From positions 1 to 64,000 of IMG/VR virus record IMGVR_UViG_3300037418_001301: 64,000 nt of DNA, one strand, 5' to 3'. Shown here piece by piece: positions 2,226-56,900 of the stretch. The notes under the pieces were generated by a model. The model had not been told where the DNA came from. It saw only the letters and a list, made by a program, of their open reading frames with translations, and ran no database searches. How positions within the stretch are numbered: the first letter of the stretch is position 1; each line of letters opens with the position of its first letter. Source of the stretch: a virus (Duplodnaviria; Caudoviricetes). Position numbers and translations under genes: made by a program.

Positions 2226-2401
2226 GACCAATCCTCATGGTTCATCGAGTTTGCTTTGAAGGCGCGGTGCATCTGATCAAGTTCGATCCGGCAATCGTTC
2301 CATGCGTACCAGGCAGCGTCTCTGACGCCCCGGCAGAATGTCGAGATGAACGTCCATGATAGAACCCACGGCGCCGCGACTGAGATCGATATCCGAAGCA
2401 T
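2222..2401 (-). CDS. Small hypothetical protein (59 aa)
   Basis: Read manually; fills the gap with start/stop overlaps on both sides. Confidence 0.4.
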   Translation of the reverse strand: MLRISISVAAPWVLSWTFISTFCRGVRDAAWYAWNDCRIELDQMHRAFKANSMNHEDWS

Positions 2402-4208: not shown

Positions 4209-4311
4209 GGTTCAAACCCTTTCGTGCGGCGTCGGCTTGAGCGACAACTGACAGGCTCAGATCGCCGATTGATTGTTCATTTCCTTGGATGTCGAGAAGG
4301 TCGGCCATGGT

Positions 4312-7006
4312 TCAGACATCCTGCTCAGATGGGAGGAGAGAGCGGAGCCGGAAGCACATGAAACGCTTCTGCTGCATCTCCTGGACTTGGCTGTCGGAAA
4401 TCGGCAGCATCGACTTGAAAAGCAGGTGGCGCTGCGCGTCGGTGTAGAGATTAAGGGCTGAGGCGAAATCGCCACGCTTGACGAAGCTGTCAGCCAGCAA
4501 CAGTATTTGCGCGTAATTCATGGCTACTGAACCTCATTTGCGATGTTGTAATTGTGACCGTTCTGCACCCCGCGCTCGGCAATCATGGCGCCAATGATGG
4601 CGAGGGTTCCGATCAGGCAGCCGATCTGTACGGCTTCGATGATGGCGTACCGGCGGTCAGCGAGGAGTTGGAGGAACTCTGGAAGATCACGCATCAGCGT
4701 CAACCTCCCACTCGCGATCAATCACGACTTCGTAGAATGGCTCATCCTCGTATTGCTCAAGGAGCGCGTCATAGTCGTCTTGAGACGCATCCCAGAGTTT
4801 TTGGACGACATCGCCTTCCACGTTATTCCACACGCTGATTTCGTATCGAGGTTCAGCCATTGGAGCCTCCCTGCATCGGAAGACGCTCAATGGATTCGAC
4901 ATTGACGTCCAACTCGCGGCCATCAATGCCCATATCCTTGATCTCGCCGTAGCCTTCGGTGAAGCAGTCGAGGAGCCCGCGAGCCTGCAGTTGAGCCAAA
5001 TGCTCGACGTGATCGTTGATGTCGTAGAACGGGTAGAAACTCTGTCGAAATTCGGCCATGAAGGCTTCATCGAACTTCGTCTCGTCCAGTTCTATTTCCA
5101 CGTCGATAATGACGGAGGCTTTGAATTTAGCCATTGCCTCCTCCATTGCCAAGCGCGGCGCGGGCGACATCGCCGCAGTCGCATATGGCGCTACCTTCCT
5201 GCTTTGCGACAGGGATGCAATTCTGAGTGAAGCATTCAGGGTCGCCATCCCATGAGGGGCTATTGATATAATTGGCCGGATCGGCGTAGAATTTCAGCGC
5301 CGCCTCCATATCTGCACGCGAGGCGACTGGCGACGATGGGCCGCTCAACAGAGCGACCTCAGCTTCGGATATTGCTTCTGAGAAATCGTACTCGTCGTAG
5401 ACGTTCGGTAAGGCGCTCGCAATTTTCATTGCCACATGAGCGCTGCGCAATGCTGCCATCAGTCGCTCGTTCTCCGCCTCCAGTTCTTCTACACGAGCCT
5501 GGAGAGCGGAGTAGGAGTTGACGGCGGTGACGATTGCTTGCGCACGCTCCGGCCTGCATATGCCAGACATCTCGAAATACTCGTTGCAGTCCGCATTGAA
5601 GGAGTTCTTCCAGCCGGACACCGTGAGATAGACGTGATGATGCTCGTCTTCGTCGCGGTCGCCGATGCGGAGTTCGTATTTATCAGGCGCGGTCATTGGC
5701 TGGCTCCTCGGAAAGGGCGGATGGGTTCACTGCGCCTAGAACGCGCTGTAGCGCCGCGATAATCGCCTCTGCTTCATGGTGAGGTTCTGGGCCGCGCAAT
5801 AGCGTTGCTTCCTCGCTTTCTAGGGAGGCAATCGGGCCGAACATCTCACCGATGGCATCTCGCACCATGCGGAGGGCAGCGGCGTAAGGGGCAACAGCAT
5901 CCGCGAAGAAGTTCGCTGGCTCCTCGGAAAGGATAGCCGCAACCCTCGCAGCAGCCCTGTACTGGCGCGTGACGCGATCCGGCGTGTTTTGGCAGGGGCA
6001 GTAATCATCCACCCCACGGCAAGCGCAGCGGTCGGCTTGGGCCTTCTGTTCGGCGACGGTGAGGAGAGGTTCAGTTCGCATCGCGCTCGTCCTCCCACCT
6101 GACATCGCGGTCATAGTCGGCGTCATAGCTGTCATCGAAGTCGTGATTTTCGGCAATCCAGCCGCACCATTTCCGGTCCTCTGCATCCGTCCACTTGATG
6201 TCGCTGCCAGCCTCATCCTTGACGCTGACGATCTCGACTTCACCGCCTTCGGGCGGATAACAATTTTCAGGCGGCCCGCTGGAGACGCCGGGATCGTATG
6301 GGCTGATCGTGTATTCGACGGTGACTTCCGTTTCGTCGTCGCGCTCAAATGAGGTGAAATGTGTTCTTGGCATCGCCTCAACTCCACATGTGTTCGCAAA
6401 TGCGATTGTTCGGATAGAAAAGCCGAGCGGAGACACGTTCGGCGTCAAGCTTGCGGGCGAAGCGAATGGCGTCCATATGATCCTGCGACCACATGTCGTC
6501 AGGACCGGCCCAATATGTTGGCGCGTCCGGGTTAGAGTCTCCGCGCTCGATGAGCCACGCGGTTTCCTGATTATGCATTTGCCACCTCGCTTTCGCGCTG
6601 AGCGCAGAACTTGTTGACACGACCGATCTGCCCGAGCGCCGCGGTAAGTTGTCGCTGGACATCCTCGACGGTGGCGCCAGCTGCAAACTGGCTGCCCATC
6701 CAATCTCCGAGCGAGGGAAGGACGTTGACCCGTACCGCAGCGGCCAGCATCAGTTTTGGATCAGTCGAGATGTAGAGCTTACGCATCGTCGCGGTCCTCG
6801 ATCTTGCGGCACATAGCGAGCGCCAGCGTTTCTAATCTCACCTGTGCGCTGTCGAGCATTATGGGACGGTCGTCGAGAGTTGCAGCCTTCGCTTCTATCA
6901 GGCGCCTGTGGAGCCTGGCCGCGGCGTCGATGGCCTGTTCAAGTTGAAACTGTGTCATGGCTGGCCTCCCTGGCGGCAGCAAATGCACTGAAGATTGCCT
7001 TGTCAT
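4312..7006 (-). other. Cluster of small coupled hypothetical early ORFs (e.g. 4312-4521, 5127-5696, 5683-6081, 6071-6373, 6378-6578, 6571-6786, 6779-7006)
   Basis: Consecutive minus-strand ORFs, many overlapping or nearly abutting and several with SD sequences; no recognisable domains. Confidence 0.55.
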
Positions 7007-34402: not shown

Positions 34403-36112
34403 ATGCTGTCCCGTTACAAAGGAGATCGCTACAGGGCCGCTGCAAACCCTGAACTGGTAGCATTTGTCGAATCCGACGAACTGCACTCACTCGACTACGA
34501 CAGCGCCTGTGATTTCTACGCTATGGTCGCAGAGACGGCCACTGAAGCGGATCTGGCTTATCTGGGATGCGTGGATAGGTATTTCCTATTCACCGCGATC
34601 CTGGGCCGCCATGACGGGTTTCATCCGTGGCTCTATGATCGCTGCAGGGAGGTGGAGTTAGAGCCGGATGGATTCCTTGACCTATGGTCGCGTGACCACC
34701 GTAAAAGCTCGTTGATCACGTTCTCTGGCTGCATTCAGGAAATCCTTAGCGATCCTGACATAACCATTGGCATCTTCTCGCACACGCAAAAGATTGCCAA
34801 GGAGTTTGTGAAATGGATCAGGCGAGAGTTCGAGGCGAACAGCAAACTGCGGCGTCTTTACCCGGATGTGTGCTGGCTCAAGCCTGCAAGCGAAGCTCCG
34901 GTTTGGACTGAGAACGCTTTTACGGTTCGTCGCCGTGGAAATCCGAAAGAGGCAACCTTGGAAGGATGGGGACTTGTCGATGGCCAGCCCACTGGCAAGC
35001 ACTTCCGCCTCATGGTCTATGACGATGTCGTGACCAAGGACAACGTGACGAATGCGGACCAGATCAAGAAGACGACGGAGTCGTGGGAACTCTCGGATAA
35101 TCTCGGCGCCGACGATGCCCGCAAGTGGCACATTGGTACAAGATATTCTTTCGCGGACTCCTACGCTGAGATCATCAATAAAGGCGTTGTGACGGTTCGG
35201 AAATACCCGGCCACGGACAACGGCAGGATTGATGGTAAGCCCGTCTTCCTTGATCCTGAGGTGTGGGAGAAGAAGAAGAAGGCCCAGACATCCACCCTCG
35301 CCGCACAGATGCTCCAGAACCCGCTATCTGGCAAAGAGCGGACCTTCGAGCCAACATGGTTCAAGCGCTGGGAAGTCCGGCCGGCGGCGGTAAACGTCTA
35401 CATTATGGCCGATCCATCGCGGGGCAGGACAGCAACATCAGACCGGACAGCAATGCCAGTCCTCGCCATCGATACCAAGGGCAAGAAATATCTGGTCGAC
35501 GGCTTCTGTCACAGGATGACGCTCTCCCAGCGGTGGGATAACCTGAAGCACTTGCATAAGAAGTGGGCCGCGATGCCCGGAGTTGGCATTCTGAAAGTGG
35601 GATACGAGCGCTTCGGGCAGCAATCCGATGATGAGTACTTCACCGAGCGGATGCGCAACGACAACTATTTCTTCAACATCGAGGAACTGGCGTGGCCTCG
35701 CGAAGGCGGGGCGTCGAAAGAGCACCGCGTCGAGCGGCTGCAGCCTGACGTCCAGTTCGGAACGTTCTATTTCCCCGCATTTGTCCATGTACAGGGGCAA
35801 GGCGACTGCCAATGGTCAGTGGACGAAGATCAGCAGATCATGCGCTATGAGCCGCTACGGGGCGAAACAGCGATCGTCAGACGCATGAAGGAACGAGGGC
35901 AGGGGTATCTTGCCGCCGCTCCTATCAAACGGAAGAACGAAGCTGGCGAGATATACGATCTCACCCGTGAGCTTATCGATGAAATGATGTTCTTCCCGTT
36001 CGCGCAGCATGACGACCTAGTCGATGCCGTGAGCCGGATTTACGACATGGAGCCGATGGCGGCTGCTGTGATCGAGGTGTTGCCAGAGGAAAAGATACCT
36101 GAAGATGCGTGA
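34403..36112 (+). CDS. terL: Terminase large subunit
   Basis: SRDHRKSS (Walker A-like), LMVYDDVV (Walker B), MADPS, VGYE, HDDLVDAVS. Confidence 0.9.
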   Translation: MLSRYKGDRYRAAANPELVAFVESDELHSLDYDSACDFYAMVAETATEADLAYLGCVDRYFLFTAILGRHDGFHPWLYDRCREVELEPDGFLDLWSRDHRKSSLITFSGCIQEILSDPDITIGIFSHTQKIAKEFVKWIRREFEANSKLRRLYPDVCWLKPASEAPVWTENAFTVRRRGNPKEATLEGWGLVDGQPTGKHFRLMVYDDVVTKDNVTNADQIKKTTESWELSDNLGADDARKWHIGTRYSFADSYAEIINKGVVTVRKYPATDNGRIDGKPVFLDPEVWEKKKKAQTSTLAAQMLQNPLSGKERTFEPTWFKRWEVRPAAVNVYIMADPSRGRTATSDRTAMPVLAIDTKGKKYLVDGFCHRMTLSQRWDNLKHLHKKWAAMPGVGILKVGYERFGQQSDDEYFTERMRNDNYFFNIEELAWPREGGASKEHRVERLQPDVQFGTFYFPAFVHVQGQGDCQWSVDEDQQIMRYEPLRGETAIVRRMKERGQGYLAAAPIKRKNEAGEIYDLTRELIDEMMFFPFAQHDDLVDAVSRIYDMEPMAAAVIEVLPEEKIPEDA

Positions 36113-36147
36113 GGCGAAAGGAAACTTGAGGTGGGGAGTGACATGCT

Positions 36148-37678
36148 ATGACTGACATCATTGACCTCCAGCATGAGCGCGCTGCACGCGATCAGCCCGA
36201 CGCAGATTGCGTCCGCAAGGATGATTACGGCCGACCGCTCTATCTATTTGCGCTCGAATACAAGATGGACGGCCACACCTGGTCAAATGATGTCTGGGCC
36301 TACTCGTGGGAAGACGCTGAGAACCGCGTTGCGGCTATGCGCAGCACCCTTGAGGTTCGCGGGCAGTTGATGGGGTTTGTGCCAGCATGAGCAACCGCGC
36401 ACGGATGCCGAACGTCATAAAGCTCCCAAGCCGTTTTCAGATTGGTCAGAACGTCCGCGTGGGGCGCCGTCGTGGATCTGCGCGCCATGGCTGACAGGAT
36501 TGAGCGAGGCGAGATCGATGCGCAATCGGCGTTGTTCATTGTTCCTCAAGACAGTGACTGGCCATGCATTTACGGATGGGGCGAGCATCTCGGTGACTAC
36601 GGCAACATCGCCGTTCTCGATTTAGCGAAGACGTGGTTTATCCACAATCTGGTGGGGAAGGCTTGAATGGCTAAATACAAAATTGCCATCAACGCGAAAA
36701 CTGGCGAGCCATTTTATAAAGACAGAGCCCGCACAAGGCCGTTCTATGTGCGGACTGATCTGATCAAGTCCATGGAACCTATCGATTGCAGAAGCGAGGT
36801 TGGCATAACCATCGGATTGATCGACGGTATTATTTCTGCCGCCCGCATCCTCGCCCGCAGAGATTTGACCGATCCAAATATCGTTGAGGCGCTCAAAGAT
36901 ATTCGTGCGGATGAGGATGTTCATCGCATCGTCGGGTCCGCCAAGGAATAAAGCCCATGGCCCGCCTGGTCGAACGCTCCTACCTCTCTCTTCTGCTAGA
37001 GGCGGACCCGGATTATTACACGACCAGCCGCAACACCAATCTGGCTGAGTATCGCTTCTCCAATGGTCGGGAATTCCTCGGGCATAACATCTACGAGAAC
37101 TACAAGCCCTTTCTATACGGCGTCGAATATCTGGGTGTCCCCGTTTTCTACAACGGCGAGATCGTCACCTATCAGACCACCGAACTCTACGATGAGTTCT
37201 TCGACAATCCATACACGCAATGGGTCACGGATGACGACGGCAACTATGTCGTTGATCTCTATGGCCGGTATGTGACCGGGAATTAAGGCTGACCATGTTC
37301 AAACTGAACTACGAGTGCGGCGATGATGGCGGCAACGAATACGGCCGCATGGAAGTCGAGACGGCCAAATGGGCGGGCGAGATGTTGCACCGCCATTACC
37401 CCGGCTATCCGTGGTTTGTCGAAGTCCGCGGCGACAAGTACAACGCCGTGATCCAGTTGCAGATCAGAGGCATCATGCCGCCTGACCGCTGGTATGTGGT
37501 GAAGTTCCGCGATGTCCTGACCGATCCCGGCGGCAGGAGAACCATCCTCAAAGGCGCTGGAGAGCTTCTGGAGCGCTACAACATCCCCCGCTCCGGCTTC
37601 ACTACCGACCACTGGCGCGCCGCGCTGGAGCGCTTCCCCATCGGTAACGGACGAGGTCACCTTGAACCCCTCAAATAA
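36148..37678 (+). other. Hypothetical ORFs between terL and portal (36148-36390, 36667-36951, 36957-37286, 37295-37678)
   Basis: Plus-strand ORFs. Confidence 0.55.
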
Positions 37679-39992
37679 CCGCGTTCCAGGCGAGGATTTC
37701 ACACGCCAGAGCGACAGCACGCCCACCGATGACAAGCAGTGGATCGACCTGTTCAAGAACGCGAAGAAGTCGGCCGAGGATCACCAGACTTCAAAACTGC
37801 AGGCGGCATGGTCGCGGAACTATCGGGCATTTGCAAACCGGCATTTCAACGGCTCGAAATATGATACCTATCGCTACCGCTCGCGCTCGAAACTGTTCAA
37901 GCCCAAGACCAGGGCAGCTGTGCGCAAGAACGATGCCACCGCAGCGGCTTCCATGTTCTCGACAGAGGATGTGGTGTCCATCACGCCAGAGCGCGCCAGC
38001 GACAAGCTGCAGATGTCCATGGCGAGGTTCCTGCACGAGGACCTGAACTATCGCCTTGACCGATCCAACAAATGGGCCGGCCCGAATTGGTTCCTCACCG
38101 CCATCGGCGCAAGGCAGGATACTCAACTCACCGGCATATGCGTTTCAAAGCAATACTGGGAGTACGAAGAGCGCGTCGTCTCTACCTATGTCGATGTTCA
38201 GACACAGACCATGGCGCTTGACGAAACCGGCATGCCGATCATCGACATGGCCACTGGCCAGCCGGTGATGACGACAAGTGTTGAACAGGGTATTCAGGAT
38301 ACGGTCGACATCGTCCGCGATCGGCCGATGATCACGCTCATTCCACCAGAACATGCTCTGATCGACAGAACAGGCGACTGGCGCGATCCGATCCAAGAGG
38401 GCGGGTTTTTTATCGCCGCCATGCCAGCGCGCATTGACGATGTTGAATACATCGTTGCGCAGCAGGCGACCCGCAACGTCATGGGTGGTGGGAAGTGGCG
38501 GGACGACATCGATCTTGCCAAGCTTCGCCAGGCCAAGGCGCAGAAGCAGGACAATGCTGCATCTGTCAGGCGTGCCCGTGGCGATGGCATCGATCCCTAT
38601 GACAGCGCGTTTCAAGGTAAGGACAACGAAACCGTCTGGCTGTATGAAGTCTTCTACCGCAAGGACGGCGAGGACTGGCATTTCTGGATGTTGGGCGACA
38701 ACATCCTCTTGAGCGATCCGCGACCAACGATCGAGAGTTATCCAGAGCAGTTCGGCGACAGGCCATATGTCCGCGGTCTCGGCGCCCTTGAGGCCCACAA
38801 GACGCACCCCATGGCGCCGGTCGAAAGCTGGCAGCCGCTGCAAATGGAGATCAACGACACCACCAATCTTGCACTTGATGCGATGAAGATGTCGATCTCG
38901 CCCATTACCAAGATCCTGAAAGGTAGGGGCGTCGATCTCAAGCAGGTCCAGAACCGCGGCCCGGATGCGGCAATCCTCGTACAGTCCATGGATGATGTCG
39001 CCTTCGACCGGGCGCCATCACCTGATGGCAACTCGCAGATGGCCGTCAACATCATGTCAAACGACATGGACGAGCTTGCTGGCGTCTTTGCTCAAGGCTC
39101 TGTCCAATCCAATCGAATGCTCAATGAGACCGTCGGCGGGATGCAGCTGCTTTCCGCCTCTGCCGGCGCTCTGACGGAATTCGATCTCAGGGTTTGGGTT
39201 GAGACCTGGGTTGAGCCCGTGCTTTCCCAGGTCGTCAAACTCATCAAACATTACGAATCCGATGAAGTGGTGATCTCCGTTGCTGGCGACCGCGCCGGAC
39301 TGATCGAAAATCTGGTAGCGGGCCAAGGCAGCAGCAAGAAGCCGCTCGACCCGCAGGGGCAGCAGCAGGACGCCGAAGAGGCGCAGAACCCGTTTGAACC
39401 GCCGATCACGATCCACGACGCCCTGAGCAATCTCGACAAGGCCCAAGTCGCGGTCAAGGTCAATGTCGGCATCGGTGCGCTCGACACTACACAGCGCATG
39501 CAGAAATTCATGGGCGGCGTCAATATCACCAAGGACTTGGCCCCGCTGCTTCAGGAGCAGGGCATCCAGCCCAATGGCGCAGCCCTCCTGCAGGAAGCAT
39601 GGGGCCTCTGCGGCTATAAGGATGGTGACAGGTTCTTTACCGTTGCACCGCCGAAGCAGGACGATGGCACGCCACCTGAAGCAGCCCAGTTGGAGATGCT
39701 CAAGCAGAAGGGCACCATGAGCAAGGCCCAGCTTGACGCCGATACGAAACTGCAGATCGAGCATATCAAGGCCGACGTCGAAGCGCAGAAGCTTTCTCTG
39801 CAAGAGCGTGAATTCGCCTATCAGCAGATGATCACGCAAATGAGCATTAACCAGCAACAGCAGACACAGAACCTGGACTACATCATGCGACTGCTGGAGA
39901 GCGTCGTGCCAGGACATCCGGCCCCTCCGCGGCAGATTGTGCAGCAGCCTTTACAGACTGCGCAGGTTACACAGTTCCCGCAGGCGCGATAG
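37662..39992 (+). CDS. Portal protein (podovirus type)
   Basis: 776 aa between terL and scaffold; S.LF.PKTR; Q-rich coiled C-terminal barrel. Confidence 0.85.
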   Translation: MNPSNNRVPGEDFTRQSDSTPTDDKQWIDLFKNAKKSAEDHQTSKLQAAWSRNYRAFANRHFNGSKYDTYRYRSRSKLFKPKTRAAVRKNDATAAASMFSTEDVVSITPERASDKLQMSMARFLHEDLNYRLDRSNKWAGPNWFLTAIGARQDTQLTGICVSKQYWEYEERVVSTYVDVQTQTMALDETGMPIIDMATGQPVMTTSVEQGIQDTVDIVRDRPMITLIPPEHALIDRTGDWRDPIQEGGFFIAAMPARIDDVEYIVAQQATRNVMGGGKWRDDIDLAKLRQAKAQKQDNAASVRRARGDGIDPYDSAFQGKDNETVWLYEVFYRKDGEDWHFWMLGDNILLSDPRPTIESYPEQFGDRPYVRGLGALEAHKTHPMAPVESWQPLQMEINDTTNLALDAMKMSISPITKILKGRGVDLKQVQNRGPDAAILVQSMDDVAFDRAPSPDGNSQMAVNIMSNDMDELAGVFAQGSVQSNRMLNETVGGMQLLSASAGALTEFDLRVWVETWVEPVLSQVVKLIKHYESDEVVISVAGDRAGLIENLVAGQGSSKKPLDPQGQQQDAEEAQNPFEPPITIHDALSNLDKAQVAVKVNVGIGALDTTQRMQKFMGGVNITKDLAPLLQEQGIQPNGAALLQEAWGLCGYKDGDRFFTVAPPKQDDGTPPEAAQLEMLKQKGTMSKAQLDADTKLQIEHIKADVEAQKLSLQEREFAYQQMITQMSINQQQQTQNLDYIMRLLESVVPGHPAPPRQIVQQPLQTAQVTQFPQAR

Positions 39993-40016
39993 CGATCCAC
40001 GACAAACTGAGGCGAT

Positions 40017-40364
40017 ATGACAGACCTTGAAGAACTGATGGACGACGAGGTTGCTCGCATCCTCGCGATAGACGCCGGCTTGCAAATTCAACAGCTTCTC
40101 CAACGGGGCGCTGCGTTCGAAACCCTGCTTATCCATGCGCGGGATGAGGCGCTCGCTGCGATGGACGAGTTGATCCACAGCAAGTTCGATACCCTCGAAG
40201 ACGTCGCGCAGAAACAGTGGGAGGTCACCCGCTATCACGCGCTTGTCGGATGGATACAGGCCATCCTTGAGAACGGAGCAGCAGCCATGGATGGCGCTTC
40301 CGAAGAGGAAGGCACATGGCTGCAATCAATGATCAGAGGCGAACCGGAAGAAAGGGATTCCTAA
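40017..40364 (+). CDS. Hypothetical head-module protein
   Basis: Short helical ORF between portal and scaffold. Confidence 0.65.
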   Translation: MTDLEELMDDEVARILAIDAGLQIQQLLQRGAAFETLLIHARDEALAAMDELIHSKFDTLEDVAQKQWEVTRYHALVGWIQAILENGAAAMDGASEEEGTWLQSMIRGEPEERDS

Positions 40365-40365
40365 C

Positions 40366-41676
40366 ATGGCCGGCGAAAATCAAAACATGGCGGCGGAAGA
40401 TGATGTCCGCGATCTCATCCCGACCGCCGATAATGTCGAAGTTGTCGAAACCCGGCAACGCGAGGCTGAACCAGCCCCGACCGCAGTTCAGGAAGAACCG
40501 AAGAAGCCCCGCGAGGGCGGCAAGTATGACGACAAGCGCGCATCGATTGTCGAAAAGCTGAAATCGCAGCGCAGTGGGCAGGATGTGCCGCTGAAGACCG
40601 TCGCTGAAGAGGCGCAGCAAAGCCGCCCCGCACCACAGCAGGCGGAAGTGCGCGAAGAGCGCACCCCGCAGCCAGTGGAACAGGCCGCTCCTGTAGTGGT
40701 CAAGACCGAAGACATTCCGGCGCCAGTGCGCCATAAGCTCAAAGTCAACGGCCGCGAGGTCGAAGTTGACGATGCACAGTTCACAGCGCTTGCCCAGAAG
40801 GCCCTTGCCTCCGAGAGCATTCTCGAAGATGCCAAGATTCTGAAGATACAGGCGCAACAGAGATTGACTGAACTTGATCGGTTAATGGCCAACCAAAGCC
40901 ACAATGATCAGCCTCAGTCGAAACCAGCGAATGCCCCGGCAGAGGATACCAAACCGGCCACGGATGCAGAGTTGGACGAGATCATCGATCGTATCCAGAC
41001 AGGTGATCTCAAAGAAGGCGTGGAAGCCCTCAAGAAGTTCGGAAAACAGGTTACGGACCAAGTGCTGGAAACAGTCAGGTCCAATCTCGGAGACGTCGAT
41101 GCGCGTATGGCTGCTACCATACAGCATGCGCAGGAAACCGCTCGTATCCAAGCCGAAACTCAGAAGGTGCTTGACGACTTCGTTTCCGAAAACCCTGATT
41201 TCTCTCAATCGCAGCGCCGGCTGGAAGTCTTGCTCGACTCCACCGTCGAAGTGATGCGAGACAACCTCTATGCGATCGGCGTCAGGCCGGAAGTTCTTCA
41301 GAATTTCGCGCAGACCCACGGCCTTGCCCCACAGGCGGCCATCGGTTTTGCCTATCGCAAACTGCGTACGGAAGGGCAGCCTCTGGCTGATCCATCCGCC
41401 GTCATGAAGACGGCAGTAAAGAACGTCAGGGAAGCTTTCGGAATGCCGGAACCGCAACGTGGAGAGGCAAAGCCCGATCCCGCTCCGGCTTCAGCAGACA
41501 ACTCAAACTTCGTGGCCGAGCGCATCGAAAGAAAGCAGGCCATGGCTCCCCAACCCAGACGGGCTAACATCTCCCCCGGAAATGACAGCGCACAGCCCGC
41601 CAATACCGAAGACGCTACCAATCAAAAGTATCGTCAGGTGGTGGCGCAAATGCGCGCATCGAGAAAGGGCAGGTAA
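40366..41676 (+). CDS. Capsid scaffolding protein
   Basis: Acidic, coiled; HKLKVNGREVEV; basic C-terminal helix; directly upstream of the capsid gene. Confidence 0.75.
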   Translation: MAGENQNMAAEDDVRDLIPTADNVEVVETRQREAEPAPTAVQEEPKKPREGGKYDDKRASIVEKLKSQRSGQDVPLKTVAEEAQQSRPAPQQAEVREERTPQPVEQAAPVVVKTEDIPAPVRHKLKVNGREVEVDDAQFTALAQKALASESILEDAKILKIQAQQRLTELDRLMANQSHNDQPQSKPANAPAEDTKPATDAELDEIIDRIQTGDLKEGVEALKKFGKQVTDQVLETVRSNLGDVDARMAATIQHAQETARIQAETQKVLDDFVSENPDFSQSQRRLEVLLDSTVEVMRDNLYAIGVRPEVLQNFAQTHGLAPQAAIGFAYRKLRTEGQPLADPSAVMKTAVKNVREAFGMPEPQRGEAKPDPAPASADNSNFVAERIERKQAMAPQPRRANISPGNDSAQPANTEDATNQKYRQVVAQMRASRKGR

Positions 41677-41703
41677 CCCGTCATCCTCTGAAAGGACGAT
41701 GAC

Positions 41704-41979
41704 ATGGCCGGACAACTTTGGTCAGTCAACACCCAGGGCGGTTATCTCTATTCCGATAACCTCTCTGACCACCTCCGCTTCGAACTGCAGCCGCGGACCA
41801 AGCTCCGCAATCTCGCCGACGCCTCCGACAAGGCAATCGGCCTGCACAAGGGCAACACCTTCCGCTGGGATCGGTTCTCCAAGCTCAACAAGCGCGGCGG
41901 CCCGATCGATGAGCAGCAGAGCATGCCGGAAACAAACTTCACCATCGGCCAGGCAAGCCTGACCATCGGTGAATTCGGT
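41704..41979 (+). CDS. Major capsid protein (N4-gp56-like), exon 1
   Basis: MAGQLWSVNTQGGYLYSDNLS...TIGEFG; joins in frame to NSVPYTG at 42959. Confidence 0.9.
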
Positions 41980-42958
41980 TATAGATTAGCCGCTTGATTT
42001 GGATTGGTAGTACCTTCGAAAGGTAACCGCCTTCGTGCCATATGTATCTGTGGCGCGATGGCACTTTATGCAAAGCGTTCTCAGATTGCTCGGATTCATC
42101 CCCAAAGATGGCTCCGAGGAAGTTGGGAGAATATGATCAACGTGCAGAATTATGCGAGACCCACGCCCTTCGTGGTTACGGTCCCCGCATAGTTGGCAGG
42201 TGTAGTTATCGCGTTTTAGAATTTCGAGGCGCAGCTGGCGATATTCGCTGGTGTCTCGGAACCCTCTGACGCCGCCACACCAATTGCCGTGATCCTTTCC
42301 AGTCGGGAAATCCCTAGAATACTCCTTCTTGGTTTTTCCTCTATTCCAAGCTACCTGACCTTTCTTTGACCGAAGCCATTTGGTTCGAAGAACTGGGTCA
42401 GAGGCAAGCCTCTCATTGACGTGTGACCAGTCGCAATAGGCTTCATGGCCTTTGCGAAATCCCATGCGTTCAAGCGATGGATGGTCTCCTTTCTTCATCC
42501 CTCTGTTCCAGCCCGCAACGGTTTGGGTCTTTCGGGTTTTGGGATGGTGACCAACCTTATATTCGCCAATGATCAGGCCGCCGCCTTCAGACCTTGGACG
42601 ATACACTGGGAATGGATAGAACGTTTCACCGCATCCGCATTTGCAGATAACAGCGGTTCGTTCTCTTTGCGCTTTGCTTACGCCCAAGTTAGTTCCTTTC
42701 GATGAGTAAATTCCGAATCTAGAAAACGGGGTGAATTGCTGGAAAGCCCAACCGCTGAGAGGCGAGGGTAATCAGCAGCCAAGCCGCATATGTAAGCCGA
42801 AAGGCCTAGGGATGCGGAAGGTTCAACGACTAGGCTTTGACGAAAGAATAAGAAGCCCACGAGCGCCCTGCGCCACACCATTGGCGATGATATAGTCTGA
42901 GCTACCGCGAAATCGGTAGAAGCGAGAGTTTAAACTACACTCGCGATAACACAAACTG
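41980..42958 (+). mobile_element. Group I intron 1 in the capsid gene, with HNH ORF
   Basis: Exon ends in U and intron ends in G. P1 CGGUUA/UAGCCG with a U-G pair. P AATTGCTGGAAA 42734, Q AATCAGCAGCC 42770, R GTTCAACGACTA 42821, S GATATAGTC 42889. Confidence 0.93.
41986..42687 (-). CDS. Intron-encoded HNH endonuclease, antisense to the intron
   Basis: RDNYTCQLCG...LHVDHI...NLRTLCIKCH; WNRG repeats; TTG start with AAAGGA SD. Confidence 0.9.
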   Translation of the reverse strand: MGVSKAQRERTAVICKCGCGETFYPFPVYRPRSEGGGLIIGEYKVGHHPKTRKTQTVAGWNRGMKKGDHPSLERMGFRKGHEAYCDWSHVNERLASDPVLRTKWLRSKKGQVAWNRGKTKKEYSRDFPTGKDHGNWCGGVRGFRDTSEYRQLRLEILKRDNYTCQLCGDRNHEGRGSRIILHVDHILPTSSEPSLGMNPSNLRTLCIKCHRATDTYGTKAVTFRRYYQSKSSG

Positions 42959-43616
42959 AATTCTGTACCGTACACCGGACTCCTCGAGAACCTCGGGGAA
43001 ATCGATGTCAAGGACATCATCGACCAGACCCTCCGCGACGACGCACGTCAAACGCTGGATCGTCTCGTCGGTTACCAGATGTTCCAGACGCCGCTTCGTG
43101 TGGCGCCGACATCCGGCACATCGACAACCGCTGTCACGTTGACCACCAACAGCGCGACCGCAACCACCAACAACGTCGAACTCGGCACTGGCCACATCAA
43201 GGCCATTTCCGATATCATGAAAGATCGTAACGTGCCCGCGTATGATGGGGACGACTACGTTGCGGTCACTCATGCCACGACGATGCGCACTTTCAAGAAC
43301 AGCCTGGAGACCATTCACCAGTACAGCGAGACTGGTATCCAGCTGATCTTCAAGGGCGAAGTAGGCCGCTACGAATCGATCCGCTGGATCGAGCAGAACG
43401 AAATCCCGAAGGGTCACGCCAATGACGCGGCGTTCAACCTGACCTCCGGTTCCGCCAACTACGTCTATGACGCCGTTGCCGACGACTGGAACAACGGGAA
43501 GTCCTCTTGGGCTCTGTTCATGGGCTCGGACACCGTTCTGGAAGCGCCGGCCATCCCTGAGGAAATCCGCGCAAAGTTGCCCGGCGACTACGGTCGCGAC
43601 AAGGGCATCGCTTGGT
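42959..43616 (+). CDS. Major capsid protein, exon 2
   Basis: NSVPYTGLLE...GEVGRYESIRWIEQ...DYGRDKGIAW; in frame with the listed 43079 ORF. Confidence 0.9.
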
Positions 43617-43935
43617 TGAACTGAAGAGGTATAGCCAAGCCTAAACTCCGTGAACTGACTGGAAACCCCTGAGAGCACAGAACGCCACAGCGTAGCTTGG
43701 AAAGGCAAGCGCGATGGCTTGAAAAGTTCTGTGATTGGGCAATCAGCAGCCAAGCCCCGAGAACCGGGGAAGGTTCAACGACTAACATGTAGGGCCAAGC
43801 GGCCCGAAGTGCGGAGCGCCCCTTACCCAAGGGGACGAAGATATAGTCTCGTCCCATAGGAAACTATGGGCAGCAATTGCCAGATGCGTTTGGCAAGAGC
43901 GGCACGGTTTTAGCGAAACCGTGTGAAGATTTCCG
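43617..43935 (+). ncRNA. Group I intron 2 in the capsid gene (ORF-less, 319 nt)
   Basis: P1 GCUUGGU/GCCAAGC; P10 GAGGUA (43626)/UACCUC (43938); Q 43741, R 43763, S AAGATATAGTC 43838; terminal G. Confidence 0.93.
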
Positions 43936-44012
43936 ATTACCTCGGCGGTGCCGGCCTGACCCACCAGGACGCCACCAACGCGCGTGTCATTTTGTGGGAC
44001 AGTGCTGCCTGA
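43936..44012 (+). CDS. Major capsid protein, exon 3
   Basis: T|AT restores W-Y-Y-L-G-G-A-G-L-T-H...WDSAA*; spliced CDS is 1011 nt (336 aa). Confidence 0.88.
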
Positions 44013-44019
44013 TCCGGCG

Positions 44020-44050
44020 GGGCGGGTTAGCGCCCGCCCTTTCCATTTCT
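44020..44050 (+). terminator. Weak intrinsic terminator after the capsid gene
   Basis: GGGCGGG-ttagcg-CCCGCCC followed by TTTCCATTTCT. Confidence 0.5.
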
Positions 44051-44072
44051 TCAAATCGAAAGGACATTGGAA

Positions 44073-44462
44073 ATGTCTTATTCCAATCCGAACCGCCGGA
44101 CCTACAGCTTTTCGGCCATTGACTTCGGGACATCTGGCTCCCGTTTCATCATTGGCCCGAAGGGCAAGACTGGCCATCTCGTGGAAATCCACGCATCGGT
44201 TACCACGACCTTCACCGCCACGACAACGGCAGGCCGCATCGATGTCGGCAATTCCACATCCGCAACAGCTTATCAGCAGTTGTCGATGGGAACGACAGCG
44301 GCCGGCGTGGCAATCTCGACCAACGATGGTGTGTCCACTGTGACCACGACGCTGCTCGATATTCCGGCCGATACTCAGGTCAAGATCTCCTCGACTGCGC
44401 CCACTGGCGGCACTCCCGCTGGCGTTGCGACGTTCCAGGTGACCATCGACTGGGCCGACTAA
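44073..44462 (+). CDS. Putative capsid decoration/cement protein
   Basis: Thr/Gly-rich beta protein immediately after the capsid gene. Confidence 0.6.
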   Translation: MSYSNPNRRTYSFSAIDFGTSGSRFIIGPKGKTGHLVEIHASVTTTFTATTTAGRIDVGNSTSATAYQQLSMGTTAAGVAISTNDGVSTVTTTLLDIPADTQVKISSTAPTGGTPAGVATFQVTIDWAD

Positions 44463-44512
44463 GCCCCTGCCGTTCGCTCACGGGCGGGCGGCCATCATCA
44501 AAGGAGAATGCG

Positions 44513-45307
44513 ATGTCAGAAGACAAACGCAGATATGTCTCCCGTCATCCCCGCAACACGGAAAAGCCGATTGCGCCGACCGGCGGGAAGAATGCAGCCG
44601 CAGACGGATACACCATCCGTCATCGTGAAACCTTCGATCGTAAGTGTGACGGTGAACTCTGGAACAAGAGCACGGACGTGTCTCCGGGACTCAAGGACGA
44701 CACCGACATTCTCTACGATTCTTACTTGATGGATTGAACATCATGGACAACACCACTGTGAAAATGCCCGCAGCCAACGGCAAGATGATCTACAAGTCCA
44801 CCGCCGTTGACACTTCCGACTACCAGGTCAAGGGCACCGACGCCGGCACGCAGCTCAAGAACCAGGGCTTCGGCGGCGGCCGTGACAACCTCAGCCATTC
44901 CATCACTTCCGGCACCGTGCCGGGCGGCAAGTGAGGGTCTGACCATGGCTGATCCGCGACTGGACATGAGCCGGCCTTACGGCACGATCTATCCGCCGCT
45001 TGAAGACGGTTCCCGTTTCGAACAGGACGGGTGCGTATTCGGGCATGACGGCAGGTTCATCAAAGGTCCGGCGCGGGCATCAGGGGCGGCGAAATCCGCC
45101 CCCAAGCCCCCCGTCGAACAAATCGAACCGCAACCCGACGAAGCTGTTGACCTCGTTGCCTGGGCGAAGGGCAGGAACTACCCGTTCTTCAAGGTCAAAG
45201 AGGCGATGAAGCAGGCAATGCCGAACGCTGACGTCTCCAACGCCAAGACCATTCTTGCTGCGCTGATCGATGGCGCAATCGTCGGCGCCGATGAGGTCGG
45301 CCGCTGA
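44513..45307 (+). other. Three small virion-module ORFs (44513-44737, 44743-44934, 44945-45307)
   Basis: Consecutive ORFs after the capsid module; the first has SD AAAGGAG. Confidence 0.6.
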
Positions 45308-50189: not shown

Positions 50190-50992
50190 TTGATACCAGC
50201 GCGCTTTCTGCGCTTCTCTCCGGCTATAACAGCCAGACGCCGGCCATTGCTCCGCCCACTGTGGCGCCGACAGCGACCACAAATCCGTTTGCCAAGTTCG
50301 CAGGCTTGTTCAATGGCGATACCAACTTGGGCGATTACGCTCAAAAGGTCGGCATGGGCCTGTCCAACATGAGCAGCACGGGTGGCGATCCATATCTTGC
50401 CTTTGCGCAAGGATTTGGCGGCACTGCGAAGTTCACCACGGCAGAACAGGCAGCTGCGGCTGCAGCAAAGCAAAAAGAGATCGACAACGCCATTGCTGCG
50501 AACAAATTGGCGATGGATCAGAACCAGTTCGACGCTCGACTAGGGCAGGATCAATCGCAGTTCAATCAGCGGATGGGGCAGGATCAGAGCCAATTCGACA
50601 CTCGCCAGACACAGCAGGCATCGGAATCGGATCGTGACTATGCCCTGAGGCAAGCCGCAGACAAGCGCCAGCAGATGCTTGCCGATCAAGAAGTCAAGAA
50701 GTCCGCAGCCGAGATCGAGCGCATGGCGCGCGGCAATGGGATCACGGTTGATCAACAGCTTCAGATCGAGCGCATCGCGCAGGCTGCGGCTGAGAACATC
50801 GTTGACCCGGAAGAGCGCAAGAAGACCGTTGATGCAGAGCGTCAGCGCCTGACGGACCAATTCAAAACCGGCGATACCAGTCTCAGCAACGGGCCTGGTG
50901 TTTCCGCGCAGGAACAGCAGCCGATGACAGCAACTGGCCCGAATGGCGAAAAGCTCGTTCTCAAGAACGGGCAGTGGGTACCGCTCCAATAA
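50186..50992 (+). CDS. DNA ejection / internal virion protein
   Basis: Q/A-rich coiled coil; C-terminal TGPNGEKLVLKNGQWVP. Confidence 0.65.
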   Translation: MIDTSALSALLSGYNSQTPAIAPPTVAPTATTNPFAKFAGLFNGDTNLGDYAQKVGMGLSNMSSTGGDPYLAFAQGFGGTAKFTTAEQAAAAAAKQKEIDNAIAANKLAMDQNQFDARLGQDQSQFNQRMGQDQSQFDTRQTQQASESDRDYALRQAADKRQQMLADQEVKKSAAEIERMARGNGITVDQQLQIERIAQAAAENIVDPEERKKTVDAERQRLTDQFKTGDTSLSNGPGVSAQEQQPMTATGPNGEKLVLKNGQWVPLQ

Positions 50993-50993
50993 C

Positions 50994-53900
50994 ATGACAG
51001 ATCAAAGCTTGAACACGGTCGGCGCTACTCCGACCGATCTCCCGCCGTTGCCTGAAGGGTTCGCGCTCGACGTGCGCCCTGCTGCGCAGCCGGTAAAGGA
51101 GACGGTGAAGGATACGTTCAGCGTGCCGTCGCTGCCGGATGGATTCAAGCTCGACCAGCCGTCCGCTTCGCCTGTTGGTGATTTCAAGGGCGTTGTCGAG
51201 CGTGGCAACATCGACCTCACCAAGCGTCCCGTTGTAAAGAACGACGATGGTACGATCAGCACCGTCCGTTCCATGTCGTTCGAGGAAAACGGCAAGGAAA
51301 TCCTCGTTCCGACCGTGAGCGATGATGGCAAAATCCTCACCAATGATGAGGCGATCAACCAATACCACAAGACGGGCAAGCATCTTGGCGTCTTCGACAA
51401 TGCAGATGATGCCACGGCCTACGCACAGGCTCTGCATGATGCGCAGGACGCGCACTACAGTGCCGCAAATCCAAAGCCTGTGAATAACGCCCCGGTCGAA
51501 CAGCAGATGGAGGACTTCGTCAAGAAGCAGCGCAAGGCTGGCACGCTTGGGACGACCGATAGCCTAGACAAGAACACCGTCAATTTCGCGAAAGGATTGG
51601 GCGAAAACATCGTCAAGCTGGAAGGCTCGGCAGTTCGCGGCATGTCGTTGTTGCCTGGAAATGACCCGGTTGATGATTTTATCTATTGGCTCACAGGCAA
51701 GGAAAAGCCTGCCAATTATCCAACGCCAGAACGGGTGAACAAAGCCACCCAAGAAGTGGCGAAGCAGATGGAGAATGTCGATTTCGGGTTTGATCCCGGC
51801 GACACATGGGAGGACGTGAAAAAGGCCCCAGCCTCAAAATTCATTCCGTGGGCACTGAAGAACGGCTTGCTATCCGCTCCTGATATGGCTGCCATGATGG
51901 TTTCATTCCCTGGTTATGCGGCGGTAAGGGCGGGATCATTGGCCCAACAGCGCGCGCAAAATGACCAGCGCGAGAATGCGACCGTTGGGGATATGCTTGT
52001 TGCCCTACCTGCATCGACAGCATCAGCTCTGCTTGATCGCATCGGTGCCAAGGGAATGTTTGGCATTGATGAAGCCGCAGTCCAAAGCATGAAGCAACTG
52101 CTGAAGGAAGGCGGAAAAGCAGCGACGAAAGAGGGAACGACCGAAGCTGCGCAGCAAGTTATTGAAGATGTTGCCACGGACGCTGGCACAAAGAAGGGCT
52201 TTGACCCGAAACGGACGGCCGAGAATGCCTTGGCTTCGTTCGTTGGCGGCTCGGTGTTTGGCGGTGTTACTCGTGGTGTTGAAGGCGCAACGGAACTCAA
52301 CGCGCATGCCAAGACCGGCAAGGTAGGTGCCTCCGATCTACCCCCACTCCCAGAGGGCTTCACCCTCGATCCTACAATTCAGAAAACCGACCGTTTGCCT
52401 CAAGAAGGCAAGCAGGGCGAAACGGTTGAGACGTCCGTCCTCCCCGGCCAGGCTCCCGTAACGCGAGACGGCAGCGAGGAGAAGGTTTCGCCTCCCGAAT
52501 CCTTGCTGCCGTCCATCTCTCCTGAGGAAAGGGCTATTCTCCGCCGCACTTCCATCCCAGACGAAGATATCGATGCGATGTCGCGGCCGGAGATTGAGCA
52601 AAAGGTTGCCGAGGCCCGCGCCGCCAATATCAAAGTCAACCCGGCGATGATCAACAAGGCGGCTCAATACAGCCCGCCAGAAGCGGTCACGCCTGCGGAC
52701 GCCGCACAGCCGCCATTGATCGCAGAAGCCACTCCTGAACGTCCTGTGGCTGAAAGCGTGCCCATCCCGGAAGCGCGGCCGGTTTTGTCTCCCGAGGATG
52801 AGGCGGCACTTCAGGATGCGACGAAACAATCCGTGGCCGAAGACCGGCAAGCACAGATCGACCGTGCGGTAAATCCCGAAGTTCAGCAGCAACTTGCAAA
52901 AACCGTTCAAGACCAACTTGAGCAGGATCGCAATCAGGCCGCTGATCAAGCGCTGGCTTATGCCGAGCCCGATCTTTCGAAGGCCGTCCAGCAGTCGGTT
53001 GATGAGGATTTGAAAGGCGATGGAACACGGCAGTCTCCTGTTGTCGTCCAGCAACCGGCCCATATCGATGTCGCTGCTCAGCAGGTCAATACCGAGCCTA
53101 GCGATGCCCAAAGAGAGGCAAACAATTACAAGCACGGTCACATCAAGATTTCTGGGATCGACATAACGCTTGAGAACCCGAAAGGTTCTTTGCGATCTGG
53201 CGTCTCCCCGAAAGGCGAACGCTGGCAAGTCGAAATGCCAGCCCATTATGGGTATGCAAAGGGCTCTGTGGGACGAGATGGCGATCAGGTAGATACCTAT
53301 ATCGGCGATAACCCGCAGTCCAAGCGAGTCTATGTCATCGACCAGAAGGATTTGAACACTCGCAGGTTTGATGAGCACAAGGCGGTGCTTGGCGTCAATT
53401 CCGTCACTGAGGCGCGTGATCTCTATGCGCGTGGCTTCTCCGATGGCATGGGTGCAGACCGCATCGGCGGCATTACCCCGATGACCATTTCCGAATTCAG
53501 GAAATGGCTGGCATCGGATGAAACCACCAAGCCGCTCGCCATGGGCAAGCCGAAGGTCCGCACCAACGAAGAAGGCTTCCCGATCGACATCAATGGCAAC
53601 GTCAAGAAGCCCGACAGCCTTATTGAATTTCTCGCCCGCAAAGGTGGCGTCCGCGAGGATCATGGCGAACTCTCCGTTCTTGGCCTTCGTGACCGCAAGA
53701 GCGGGTTTGTCGTCGGCGCTGGACCACTGATCCGCCGTAACGGCATGACAGTGGACAAGGCGCGTGAGGCCGCTGCCGAGGCCGGCTACCTGCCCATGGT
53801 GTCTTCACTCAAGGATTTCTACGATGCGCTGGATCAGGACGCCCGGTCAGGTCGACAGGTTTTTTCGCAGTATGACGATGACCACGCGGCTCGCTGGCGT

Positions 53901-56900
53901 GAAGCGCAAGGCGGAGAAGCAAGAAAAGCAGAAGAAGACGCCTCCCGTAGCGAAGCCTACGACCGCCTGAAAGCAGACGGTTTCCCGGTTGACGAAGGCG
54001 CGGACTACGTCGATCGTGTCGCCGCACACATGGCCAATGGTCAAACCTACGAAGATGCGGTAGAGTTGGCATACCAGAACATCGGTGCGGAACAGCCAGA
54101 AGTCGCCGATATCCCGTTCTTCGGAGAAGACGTAAATGAAACTGTCGCCGGAACAGCACCTGTCGATCGTGCGCCAAGTCGAGCAGAAGGCGAACGCGAC
54201 CAACGATCCATCGATTCAAGCTCAATTGAAGCGGATCGCCAAACTGGGCAGGTTCGTGGCGAAGGTGGGCCGGAAGTATCGGGCAGCCGAGGCGAGCAAG
54301 ACGGCGGACGCGGCGATCAGCAAGGCACGGCTCAGCGCGAAAAGTCTCAGCCGCAAGAGCCTGTAGCCGAGCGCGGCGCTCTTCCGTCCGGATTCACGAC
54401 ATCGATGGGTTCGACGTATACCGTTCATGAGGACGGCACAACTACCCGCGACAAGGCCGCTCGAAGCACTCCCGGCCATGAAGGCGACAGCGGGCTAAAG
54501 GCTCGAACCGAAAAGACCATTTACACGGATGCGAATGCTGGCGCACTGAGCGCGGCGGGCCTGACGTTTGCCCCCGGCAGCAAGGGCGCGCGTGTAGTCA
54601 TCAGGAATGGCAAGGCATCGCTCGCTACATGGAACGTGAAGGAAAACCGTTGGGGCGTTTCCGAGGGTAGCCGTGATATCCAGTTCTTCAATGAGCCTGC
54701 GGTTGGCCGCTACCCGTTGGAACTCTGGAAGTCTGCGGATGATGTTCCCGGTTACGAAGCCTATGCGAAGATGCATGCCGGCAACAAGATCACAGAGATT
54801 TCCAGTGGCAAGGAGCCCGTAAGCGAAGCCGGAGCAGACAACAAGCAGCAACTCGTCATTCCCGGAGCAGAGCGAGCCTCTGACGCGACTATGGCTCAAC
54901 GCGGGGCAGATGCCGCCCTCAAGCCAAAGGTCGCGCAGAAGGAGCCCGCTGGGCTGTTTAGCGATGAGCGGAACCAGGGCGACTTGCTGGATTTGGCGAA
55001 GAAGCCAGCTCAGCGCGAGGAAGCTAAGGTTGAGCCCGCAGAGCCGGAAGCCAAAGCCGCCACGTCGGAAGAGCCAAAGAAGCTTGTCCCGCCGTCAGTC
55101 GTCTATCACGGCACGTCAACAGGCGGATTCGATGCCTTCGACACATACCAGGGCAAATACGGCCTATTCGGTAGCGGTGGCTATTTCACCGAAGATCCAA
55201 ACATCGCGCTCGAATACACCCGCAAGGGCAGGGGCGAGAAGCCGACGGTCTATTCCGCCAAACTCAATGTCAAAAACGCGTTGGACATGGACGCCAAGGC
55301 CGATGTTGCGGCTTGGGAGAAAGCGTTCCCAGACCATTTCGACCCGGATAACCTTCCCGAGAATGCCACCAACGAGCAGGCCTATCGCGAAGTCGAAGAA
55401 ATGCTCTCGCAGGATATGATCCCTGACTACGAGGGCGCCGAGACCATGCAGGACGGCGTTCAGAGCATGGGTTATGACGCCATCACGCATATCGGTGGTG
55501 GTCGTCACAAGGCTTCCAAAGGTACGAAGCACCGTGTTTGGATCGTGTTTGATCCTGAACAGGTCACCAATTTCAAGGAAGAGGAACGGCATTATTCGGC
55601 AAATCCAGCCGGCTGGGATACCGCTGGCGAAATGGACGCCAAGCCGCTGCTCTCGAAAGCCGATCAGCGGGAACTCGTAGATATCGTCCGCACCACGGCT
55701 GGCCTCGACCCCGAATTTGTCGATACGATCAAAATCCCCGAAGGTGGCGCAAAGGGTTGGGGCAATCTAAATTCTTCAACGGCAGCCGGCGCTTACAGCC
55801 CGATGCGCGATATCGTCACGCTTGCGCTCGACAGCGCGACCAAAAAATCCGCCCAACACGAATCCTTCCATCGCCTTCAAAACCTGTTCCTCACCGAAAA
55901 AGAGCGCAGGGTTCTGAAAGCAGAAGAGCCTCGCCTGCGGAAGATGATTGCCGACAGCACTACCTACGGGCAAGATGTTGCCGCCAAGATGAGCCGCAAG
56001 GAAGTCGAAGCGGAAGCCTACGCCATGTGGGCAACAGCGAAGAAAAAGCAGGAATCCGCGCCGAAAATCCATATCGCGCTGCGCAAAGCGTGGAACAGCA
56101 TTGCCACCATGCTTGAGCGCGTCCGCAATTACCTCAATGGGCGTGGTTTCCAGACTTTGGAGGACGTGTTTGGCAAGGCGAAAACGGGTGAGATTGCCAA
56201 GCGCCCAAAGCGCCAAAGCCAGAGCACTGATACGCAATATGCGATCACGGACGAGCGCGGCCCTGTTGCCGAACCGGATACCGGCACCGTCACTCCAGGC
56301 GCTGCCATCGGCACCCGTATCAACGATTATCTCAACGCCGCCAGCAAGGCGCTTGCCTCAAAGATCAAATCCAAGGGCAGCCGTTTTGATCGCTCAACAG
56401 CAGAAGACGGAGAAACCACCGCCCAGCTCGCGCACCGCAAGATCGTGGACTATCTCTCCCCGGTAAAGCAGATGCAGGAGAAGGTTGGCGGCAACCTCAA
56501 TGATCTGGCAAACGCCTATCAGACGGCTCGGCTGGCGGAAGGAACGATCCGCCACGAAATCCACCAGATCGATGACAAGTACGTAACGCCTGCCGTTGAT
56601 GCACTGGCAGCCGTAGGAGCATCACTGGAGGACTTGCACAAGTACATGTACGCCATGCACGTCCCGGAGCGTAACCGTGTCGTAGGGCTGCGCAATGGTG
56701 AGGAAGGCAAGCAGATCGAATTTTCGGAAGTTGATGGAACGTGGAAGATCGGTAGCGGGCCGGTAAGTGACGGGAAACGGGAGCAGTTATTCCGTGCAGC
56801 TACTGACCCAACTGTCCGCGGCGCGTCTGGTATGTCCACCAATGAGGCAAAGGACATCATCCGCGAACTCTCCCAAGATCGTGAAAAGTTCATGGGCATC

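Follow-up and report, generated by a model that had tools for sequence, protein, structure and literature searches.

A phage major capsid gene interrupted by two group I introns, one of which carries an antisense HNH endonuclease gene

The DNA analyzed here, called the window, comprises 64,000 nt (positions 1 to 64,000) of IMGVR_UViG_3300037418_001301, an IMG/VR contig of an uncultured Caudoviricetes phage. Three coding pieces of its major capsid gene lie on the plus strand between 41704 and 44012 and are separated by 979 nt and 319 nt. We consider it highly probable that they form a single capsid gene with two mobile group I introns, which behave as selfish passengers and not as regulators. 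This reading builds on the observed ribozyme signatures, exact junctions, presence/absence polymorphism and endonuclease conservation. A preliminary description of the same DNA had already proposed one capsid gene of three exons and two group I introns, and it was right at every boundary. The 233-aa HNH open reading frame (ORF) on the opposite strand of intron 1 was not mentioned in it.

Three exons and two group I introns

41704-41979 (+): capsid exon 1, 92 codons, 3′ end ...GAA TTC GGU; 70% identity to residues 1-94 of the intron-less capsid of L009
41980-42958 (+): intron 1, group I, 979 nt; 5′ end with short P1 and P2, the P2 loop spanning 700 nt, followed by the core
42959-43616 (+): capsid exon 2, 219 codons plus 1 nt; PHROG 1357 major head protein, 2.4e-10
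43617-43935 (+): intron 2, group I, 319 nt, ORF-less; no P2, extended P5, P6, P7, P7.1, P8 and three P9 hairpins
43936-44012 (+): capsid exon 3, 2 nt plus 24 codons plus stop

When 41980-42958 and 43617-43935 were excised, the three exons joined into a frame of 1011 nt that encodes 336 aa, with its sole stop at the end. Without splicing, the reading frame 41704-41997 terminates after 97 aa, the stub that had been predicted. The junction peptides of the ligated frame are GEFG/NSVPYTG and GIAW-Y/YLGG, and both joints fall within invariant protein motifs (G92 N93 S94 P96 and Y312 Y313 G315). The junctions are unique, as a shift of either by one base loses the frame, the homologue match and the U...G rule. 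This rule had been claimed for both introns and was confirmed: both 5′ exons terminate in U (41979, 43616) and both introns in G (42958, 43935).

A misalignment of intron-less homologues at the junctions had been named beforehand as the sign of a wrong gene model. The alignment proved contiguous at both: the ligated protein aligned with the intron-less capsids of phage PTXU04 and Vibrio phage D279 without gaps at EFG/NSVPY and AWY/YLGG. With 100% of its length covered in tblastn, exon 2 alone matched the major capsids of a group of Vibrio phages as well as that of Escherichia coli phage PTXU04. Related capsid genes were contiguous in 26 of 30 cases in IMG/VR and in about 28 of 36 in GTDB genomes; the 36 GTDB relatives came from a scan with the capsid alignment, and an earlier GTDB scan with exon 2 peptide words found no relative. 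The label N4-gp56-like, given in the preliminary description, holds as a statement of distant relationship and fails as a family assignment. Against TIGR04387 (N4-gp56 family; equivalog cut-off 60 bits), exon 2 alone scored 31 bits and the full-length relatives L009 and L037 scored 58.9 and 56.8 bits, all below the cut-off. The capsid appears to belong to a related fold family and is not an N4-gp56 equivalog. No other capsid gene of the same family was found in the whole 75-kb record, and the phage would therefore need both splicing events.

Both introns were recognized by the Rfam group I model RF00028 (full model positions 1-253), at 42680-42919 with 65.8 bits (E 1.8e-14) and at 43588-43870 with 76.2 bits (E 1.4e-17), above the gathering score of 50 bits. 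A permissive Rfam scan of the 64-kb window (E up to 0.1) gave no third intron or other RNA family, and the whole 75,326-bp record gave no further Rfam match beyond the two introns. The sequences that the introns had been said to share are two 16-mers, each present exactly twice in the window with one copy per intron, versus 0 expected. The P1 helices with a U-G pair at the cleavage site and the complete cores described earlier were likewise recovered, all helices being intact according to the Rfam alignments, covariation and a minimum free energy (MFE) fold. The ribozyme parts that could be placed are as follows.

41976-41992 (+): intron 1 P1 hairpin, CGGU/UA...UAGCCG, 6 pairs; U41979 pairs with G41989 at the cleavage site
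41996-42003 (+): intron 1 P2 5′ strand, GAUUUGGA, pairing with UCCGAAUC at 42712-42719 and closing the loop that contains the HNH gene
42727-42958 (+): intron 1 catalytic core, in the order P3, P4, P5, P6/P6a, P7, P7.1, P8, P9, P9.1, conserved GAUAACA tail, terminal G42958
43610-43640 (+): intron 2 P1, 7 bp; exon GCUUGGU 43610-43616 with guide GCCAAGC 43634-43640, U43616 pairing with G43634

The guide of intron 1 is GCCG at 41989-41992, and its P1 hairpin was recovered also in the fold of the ORF-less allele. CCGAAU at about 42714 was tried as an internal guide; it forms six exon pairs with U.U at the cleavage site and was rejected because these nucleotides form the 3′ strand of P2, whose partner is 41996-42003 and whose pairing shows covariation with that of the close relative L005. 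There, P2 is GAUCGGG/CCCGAUC at the same place, with compensatory changes relative to the window. The explicit P3-P9.1 structure (56 pairs) was evaluated on an alignment that combined the site-1 intron of the window with those of four close and four distant relatives. In this alignment 88.5% of cells were paired, against 27-44% in controls with slid partners; 22 pairs showed compensatory double changes, and none of 500 shuffles reached any of the measures. P7 is invariant in the alignment and uninformative for covariation; as a long-range pairing, it was mis-paired by RNAalifold alone, and the explicit structure and pair counts were used in place of that fold. P9 was only 53% paired because MAFFT shifted the register in four close relatives (L005-L008); the stem itself is present.

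These covariation figures concern the intron 1 lineage; support for the core helices of intron 2 comes from the Rfam alignment and from the unconstrained MFE fold (z = -5.0), which reproduces P1 and P3-P9.2. Intron 2 also has a 6-bp P10, in which the guide GAGGUA (43626-43631) pairs with UACCUC of exon 3 (43938-43943). Covarying hairpins lie between the P7 5′ strand and the P3 3′ strand, at the P7.1/P7.2 position (42833-42857 and 43792-43805), and because of them both introns appear to group with the IA-type class typical of phages. In both introns an in-frame stop is found at most six codons past the 5′ splice site, so ribosomes would drop off before the ribozyme core.

Sister phages, capsid relatives and the antisense HNH gene

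Four IMG/VR contigs (L005-L008) share 93-99% DNA identity with the window across the region and serve as natural controls. Their introns were confirmed by Rfam. All four carry an ORF-less intron 1 of 292 nt. Site 2 is empty in L005 and L006, whose capsid protein is 100% identical to the ligated window protein; L008 has two introns, both ORF-less; and L007 combines the short intron 1 with a 797-nt intron 2 that contains, in the P9/P9.1 region, a sense-strand gene for a 184-aa HNH_3/His-Me endonuclease. Between the ligated junction of the window and the empty site 2 of L005 and L006 there are four synonymous differences within 15 nt. Two of the four fall, in the window, within the P1 (GCU) and P10 (CUC) pairings, as would be expected from co-conversion or from selection for guide pairing.

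The difference in length of intron 1 is due to the inverted endonuclease gene.

41986-42687 (−): gene for a 233-aa HNH homing endonuclease; AAGGA ahead of the TTG start, stop codon within the 3′ strand of P1
42005-42716: HNH cassette, about 712 nt in the window, replaced by about 30 nt in L005-L008 (blastn breakpoints)

Among close relatives, the HNH gene is thus present or absent at one and the same site. Its product matches Pfam PF01844 (2.7e-7, above the cut-off) and many PHROG HNH families (best 1.7e-16). The ORF is intact, and H185, N201, H210 and C164/C167/C206/C209 are invariant in five orthologues, with 78 invariant columns. In GTDB, four distant capsid genes (40-52% identity to that of the window) contain an Rfam-confirmed intron of about 1 kb at this place: in Aromatoleum anaerobium (L064), a Thermodesulfobacteriota member (L066), a deltaproteobacterial metagenome-assembled genome (MAG; L069) and a Thermotogae-binned MAG (L070). 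Each intron has an orthologous HNH ORF (49-68% identity) on the opposite strand, with its end again near P1. Only three further full-length orthologues (L193-L195) were obtained when IMG/VR was scanned with a profile, all antisense in site-1 capsid introns; L194 resembles L070 and apparently represents the same phage. Full-length orthologues independent of the window are thus known from six loci, in hosts of several phyla.

Every full-length orthologue found is antisense and lies in a capsid intron at, or 8 nt from, the site used in the window. On the other hand, 118 sampled IMG/VR loci with intron-core words contained three related HNH domains beside the core, all on the strand of the intron. 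The inverted orientation is therefore a fixed trait of this HNH lineage. A −35/−10-like element is present at the same distance upstream of the HNH ORF in four of eight instances. It is strong only in L195 (TTGACT-17-TATAAT, with 2 of 500 shuffles as good). For expression of the HNH gene, this element is a hint only.

Introns were found at no fewer than five positions in the capsid family. The site after G92 is used at the identical nucleotide in the window, L064, L070 and L193, and a site 8 nt further on in L066 and L069, where the guide sequences are altered to match. Another intron lies near residue 244 in L131 (5980-6213, 103 bits), and one after FFG, at about residue 283, in L060 (4768-5001, 90 bits). 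The site after the first base of the codon following W311 is occupied in the window, L007, L008, L070 and the cultured Vibrio phage 1.232.O. In a Rhodospirillaceae MAG (L062, 3102-4000), an insert of about 900 nt near capsid residue 82 contains an ORF of 271 aa on the plus strand, which matches LAGLIDADG_3 weakly (E 0.0085); no Rfam group I match was obtained in this insert.

It had been anticipated that automated annotation would miss such introns. This was borne out in Vibrio phage 1.232.O (MG592596.1, L191), where the capsid gene at 1596-2859 is annotated as a truncated 289-aa coding sequence. An unannotated group I intron of 83 bits lies exactly at site 2 and is followed by a third exon of 29 codons. 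The intron is ORF-less, and a free-standing HNH_3 gene (NVP1232O_09) is located directly downstream of the capsid gene, a layout that may represent a collaborative-homing arrangement. Zeng, Bonocora and Shub reportedly described in 2009, under the name ‘collaborative homing’, a cyanophage S-PM2 psbA intron with an adjacent free-standing endonuclease. That arrangement resembles Vibrio phage 1.232.O and differs from the window, where the only HNH_3 gene is 40 kb away from the capsid gene. This gene (3432-4208, minus strand), in the early leftward region, is free-standing, encodes an HNH_3 plus HTH_7 endonuclease and has 36% identity to the intron-2 endonuclease of L007. Its product might act in trans on the ORF-less intron 2.

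Favored explanation and its rivals

According to the favored explanation, the primary late transcript would undergo two guanosine-initiated self-splicing reactions, one cutting after U41979 and ligating to A42959, the other cutting after U43616 and ligating to A43936. The spliced mRNA would encode a 336-aa capsid protein of the HK97 type. Intron 1 is viewed as a unit of intron and homing endonuclease, with the HNH gene inverted in the P2 loop under its own ribosome-binding site and probably its own promoter. The HNH product would cut intron-less capsid alleles near the invariant coding segment for EFGNSVPY during co-infection, and repair of the cut would copy intron 1 into the intron-less allele. 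Intron 2 would be an ORF-less derivative of a related intron, whose endonuclease-bearing form probably survives in the sister phage L007, where a sense HNH_3 gene begins in the P9 stem and extends across the P9.1 loop.

Several points weigh against this explanation. We infer from sequence the splicing and its efficiency, the activity and target of the endonuclease, and the antisense transcription. P1 of intron 1 consists of only four exon-guide pairs and two intron pairs and its P10 is weak, and the 700-nt antisense insert in P2 could slow the folding of this intron. A simple sigma-70 scan of 40000-45000 found no minus-strand promoter, and the promoter-like element of the window is weak, with 8 of 12 matches and 121 of 500 shuffles as good.

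The preliminary description had suggested that double splicing makes capsid output a possible control point. Such an adaptive role, in which double splicing or antisense HNH transcription would time or throttle capsid output, appears quite unlikely. What can be pleaded for it is the antisense orientation of the HNH gene in seven of seven independent full-length orthologues (the window and the six loci), together with the promoter-like element placed equidistantly upstream in half of the instances and strong in L195, from which transcripts would complement P1 and exon 1. In T4, moreover, intron splicing depends on translation and growth state (Sandegren & Sjoberg 2007, as cited in PMC8541194). 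Nothing was found, however, in support of the control point as first suggested. The life cycle requires neither intron 2 nor the HNH cassette, given that each is missing altogether from sister phages with a 99-100% identical capsid. Most members of the capsid family are intron-less, and a patchy distribution, several insertion sites and loss of the ORF are what characterizes selfish homing elements. A related possibility, though an improbable one, is that the site-1 element represents a distinct intron/endonuclease lineage specific to capsid genes, whose inversion serves a function; it would then be an antisense-regulated mobile intron and more than a passenger. The HNH cassette would have its own promoter opposite P2-P4 and be expressed earlier than the late operon or separately from it. 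Through complementarity to P1 and exon 1, its RNA would link production of the endonuclease to splicing or stability of the capsid pre-mRNA.

The short P1 of intron 1 and the large insert, which is present in the window copy only and absent from the four closest relatives, could also be taken to mean that the introns are relics that no longer splice, intron 1 for instance having been disabled by the 700-nt insert, and that the capsid gene is dead in a defective or decaying phage. This is very unlikely. The three exons are open and in phase, and their protein is 100% identical to that of relatives; both cores score above the Rfam threshold with all helices intact, and P2 still closes around the insert. 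The architecture of intron plus antisense ORF is kept in six distant lineages with intact capsid exons, and a second capsid gene is absent from the record, which is rated complete. Since this IMG/VR contig derives from a metagenome, the inserts might in principle be chimeric joins of metagenomic reads. We regard such an assembly artefact as practically out of the question, given that four independent contigs from other samples have the same introns at the same nucleotides, and that the same holds for the isolate genomes of Aromatoleum anaerobium LuFRes1 and Vibrio phage 1.232.O.

As a clean and fully resolved case, the locus illustrates that production of a phage's most abundant virion protein can hinge on two ribozyme reactions and that such genes are reported as fragments by gene callers. 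Several stages in the life cycle of a homing element are preserved among near-identical phages, from an empty site through an intron without endonuclease to an intron that encodes one. More broadly, this N4-like capsid family is a hot spot for introns and hosts a dedicated HNH lineage that is always inverted. Cultured systems suited to tests of splicing, homing and antisense expression are Vibrio phage 1.232.O and the Aromatoleum anaerobium LuFRes1 prophage. The finding leaves knowledge of how group I introns work unchanged.

Precedents and genomic context

The selfish capsid-gene element is of a type already documented in other phages, and the rarity implied in the preliminary description was overstated, since capsid-gene group I introns have been proven in mycobacteriophage LittleE and reported in lactococcal phage Tuc2009 (PMC3706429). 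In LittleE (Cluster J; Pope et al. 2013, PMC3706429), splicing of a capsid-gene intron, judged most likely group I, was proven by reverse transcription PCR and N-terminal sequencing. As in the window, a late, highly expressed capsid gene is interrupted, the exon ends in U and the intron in G, and the endonuclease gene is leftward, opposite to the capsid gene; moreover, related phages are intron-less and sister phages contain a related ORF-less intron (PMC3706429). Unlike the window with its two introns, LittleE has one, in another capsid family, with an actinobacterial host and an unrelated endonuclease. A tblastn search with the HNH protein of the window gave no Mycobacterium phage among the matches listed or the ten leading host genera; in contrast to LittleE, the antisense HNH lineage of the window was found only in the present capsid family, in hosts of several phyla.

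To our knowledge, the paper on orf142 of Staphylococcus phage Twort reports no antisense endonuclease. As in the window, several related group I introns, three in number, are combined in one gene, and a single protein thus requires more than one splicing event; host gene and phage are different (Landthaler & Shub 1999, as cited in PMC6669764). The intron of Tuc2009, as cited in PMC3706429, also lies in a capsid subunit gene, that of a temperate phage; it is a single intron, in an unrelated capsid of a phage with a Gram-positive host. The T4 introns of td, nrdB and nrdD (sunY) with I-TevI/II/III (PMC2988022) share with the introns described here cores of the IA type, in which an additional hairpin separates P7 from P3′, an early in-frame stop, mobility by an intron-encoded endonuclease and the occurrence of ORF-less and ORF-bearing variants. 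They interrupt nucleotide-metabolism genes and have sense ORFs in P6/P9 loops, whereas the window has a structural gene and an antisense ORF in the P2 loop. Phage genes with more than one intron (Twort) have been widely reported, as have introns in essential genes such as those for terminase and polymerase. Neither antisense ORFs nor capsid genes are mentioned in the group I intron reviews and databases PMC3984707 and PMC11835236. Modestly new are two introns in one capsid gene, the captured life-cycle stages and an always-antisense, capsid-specific HNH lineage. In Pseudomonas phage Pa_WF01 (OQ848593.1, L192), the region 2210-4451 contains a group I core like intron 2 (79% over 126 nt). This intron of N4-like Pseudomonas phages splits a gene for a DNA-dependent RNA polymerase, with an ORF between the parts.

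The full record is 75,326 bp long, is rated complete by CheckV and encodes RecT, an exonuclease, DnaB, the terminase large subunit, a portal and a 2743-aa virion protein. Kinship supports the alphaproteobacterial assignment made in the preliminary description, the closest capsids found in genomes being those of Aminobacter anthyllidis (70%), Hyphomicrobium, Bradyrhizobium, Xanthobacteraceae and Aestuariivirga. Related capsids also lie in large bacterial contigs of 0.3-2.9 Mb (Aminobacter 999 kb, Aromatoleum 716 kb, Aestuariivirga 2.9 Mb). Because the nearest capsids are in Hyphomicrobiales genomes, several of them in large contigs, the host is likely an alphaproteobacterium of the Hyphomicrobiales, and prophage relatives exist. 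The phage had also been called temperate, and here the evidence fell short. Although relatives reside in large bacterial contigs, no match to a tyrosine or serine integrase (PF00589, PF00239) was obtained in the 75-kb record, and Pfam scans of 20 further ORFs revealed no lysogeny genes; a temperate lifestyle is unproven.

A strong terminator-like hairpin follows the capsid gene.

44019-44040 (+): 9 pairs, 7 of them GC, plus a T run; 7 nt past the capsid stop codon

Between the genes for the terminase large subunit (34403-36112) and the portal (37662-39992), about 1.5 kb (36113-37661) contains small ORFs only, and no Rfam match was found in this interval. In the PHROG profile matched by the terminase large subunit, the match is confined to the C-terminal 415 positions. 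The 2743-aa virion protein (50943-59174, plus strand) matches giant phage proteins and has an endolysin-like, a DarB-like and a minor-head segment. A GSCFA-family protein (Pfam 1.5e-54) is encoded outside the window, on the minus strand at genome positions 64327-65412 (L036 327-1412).

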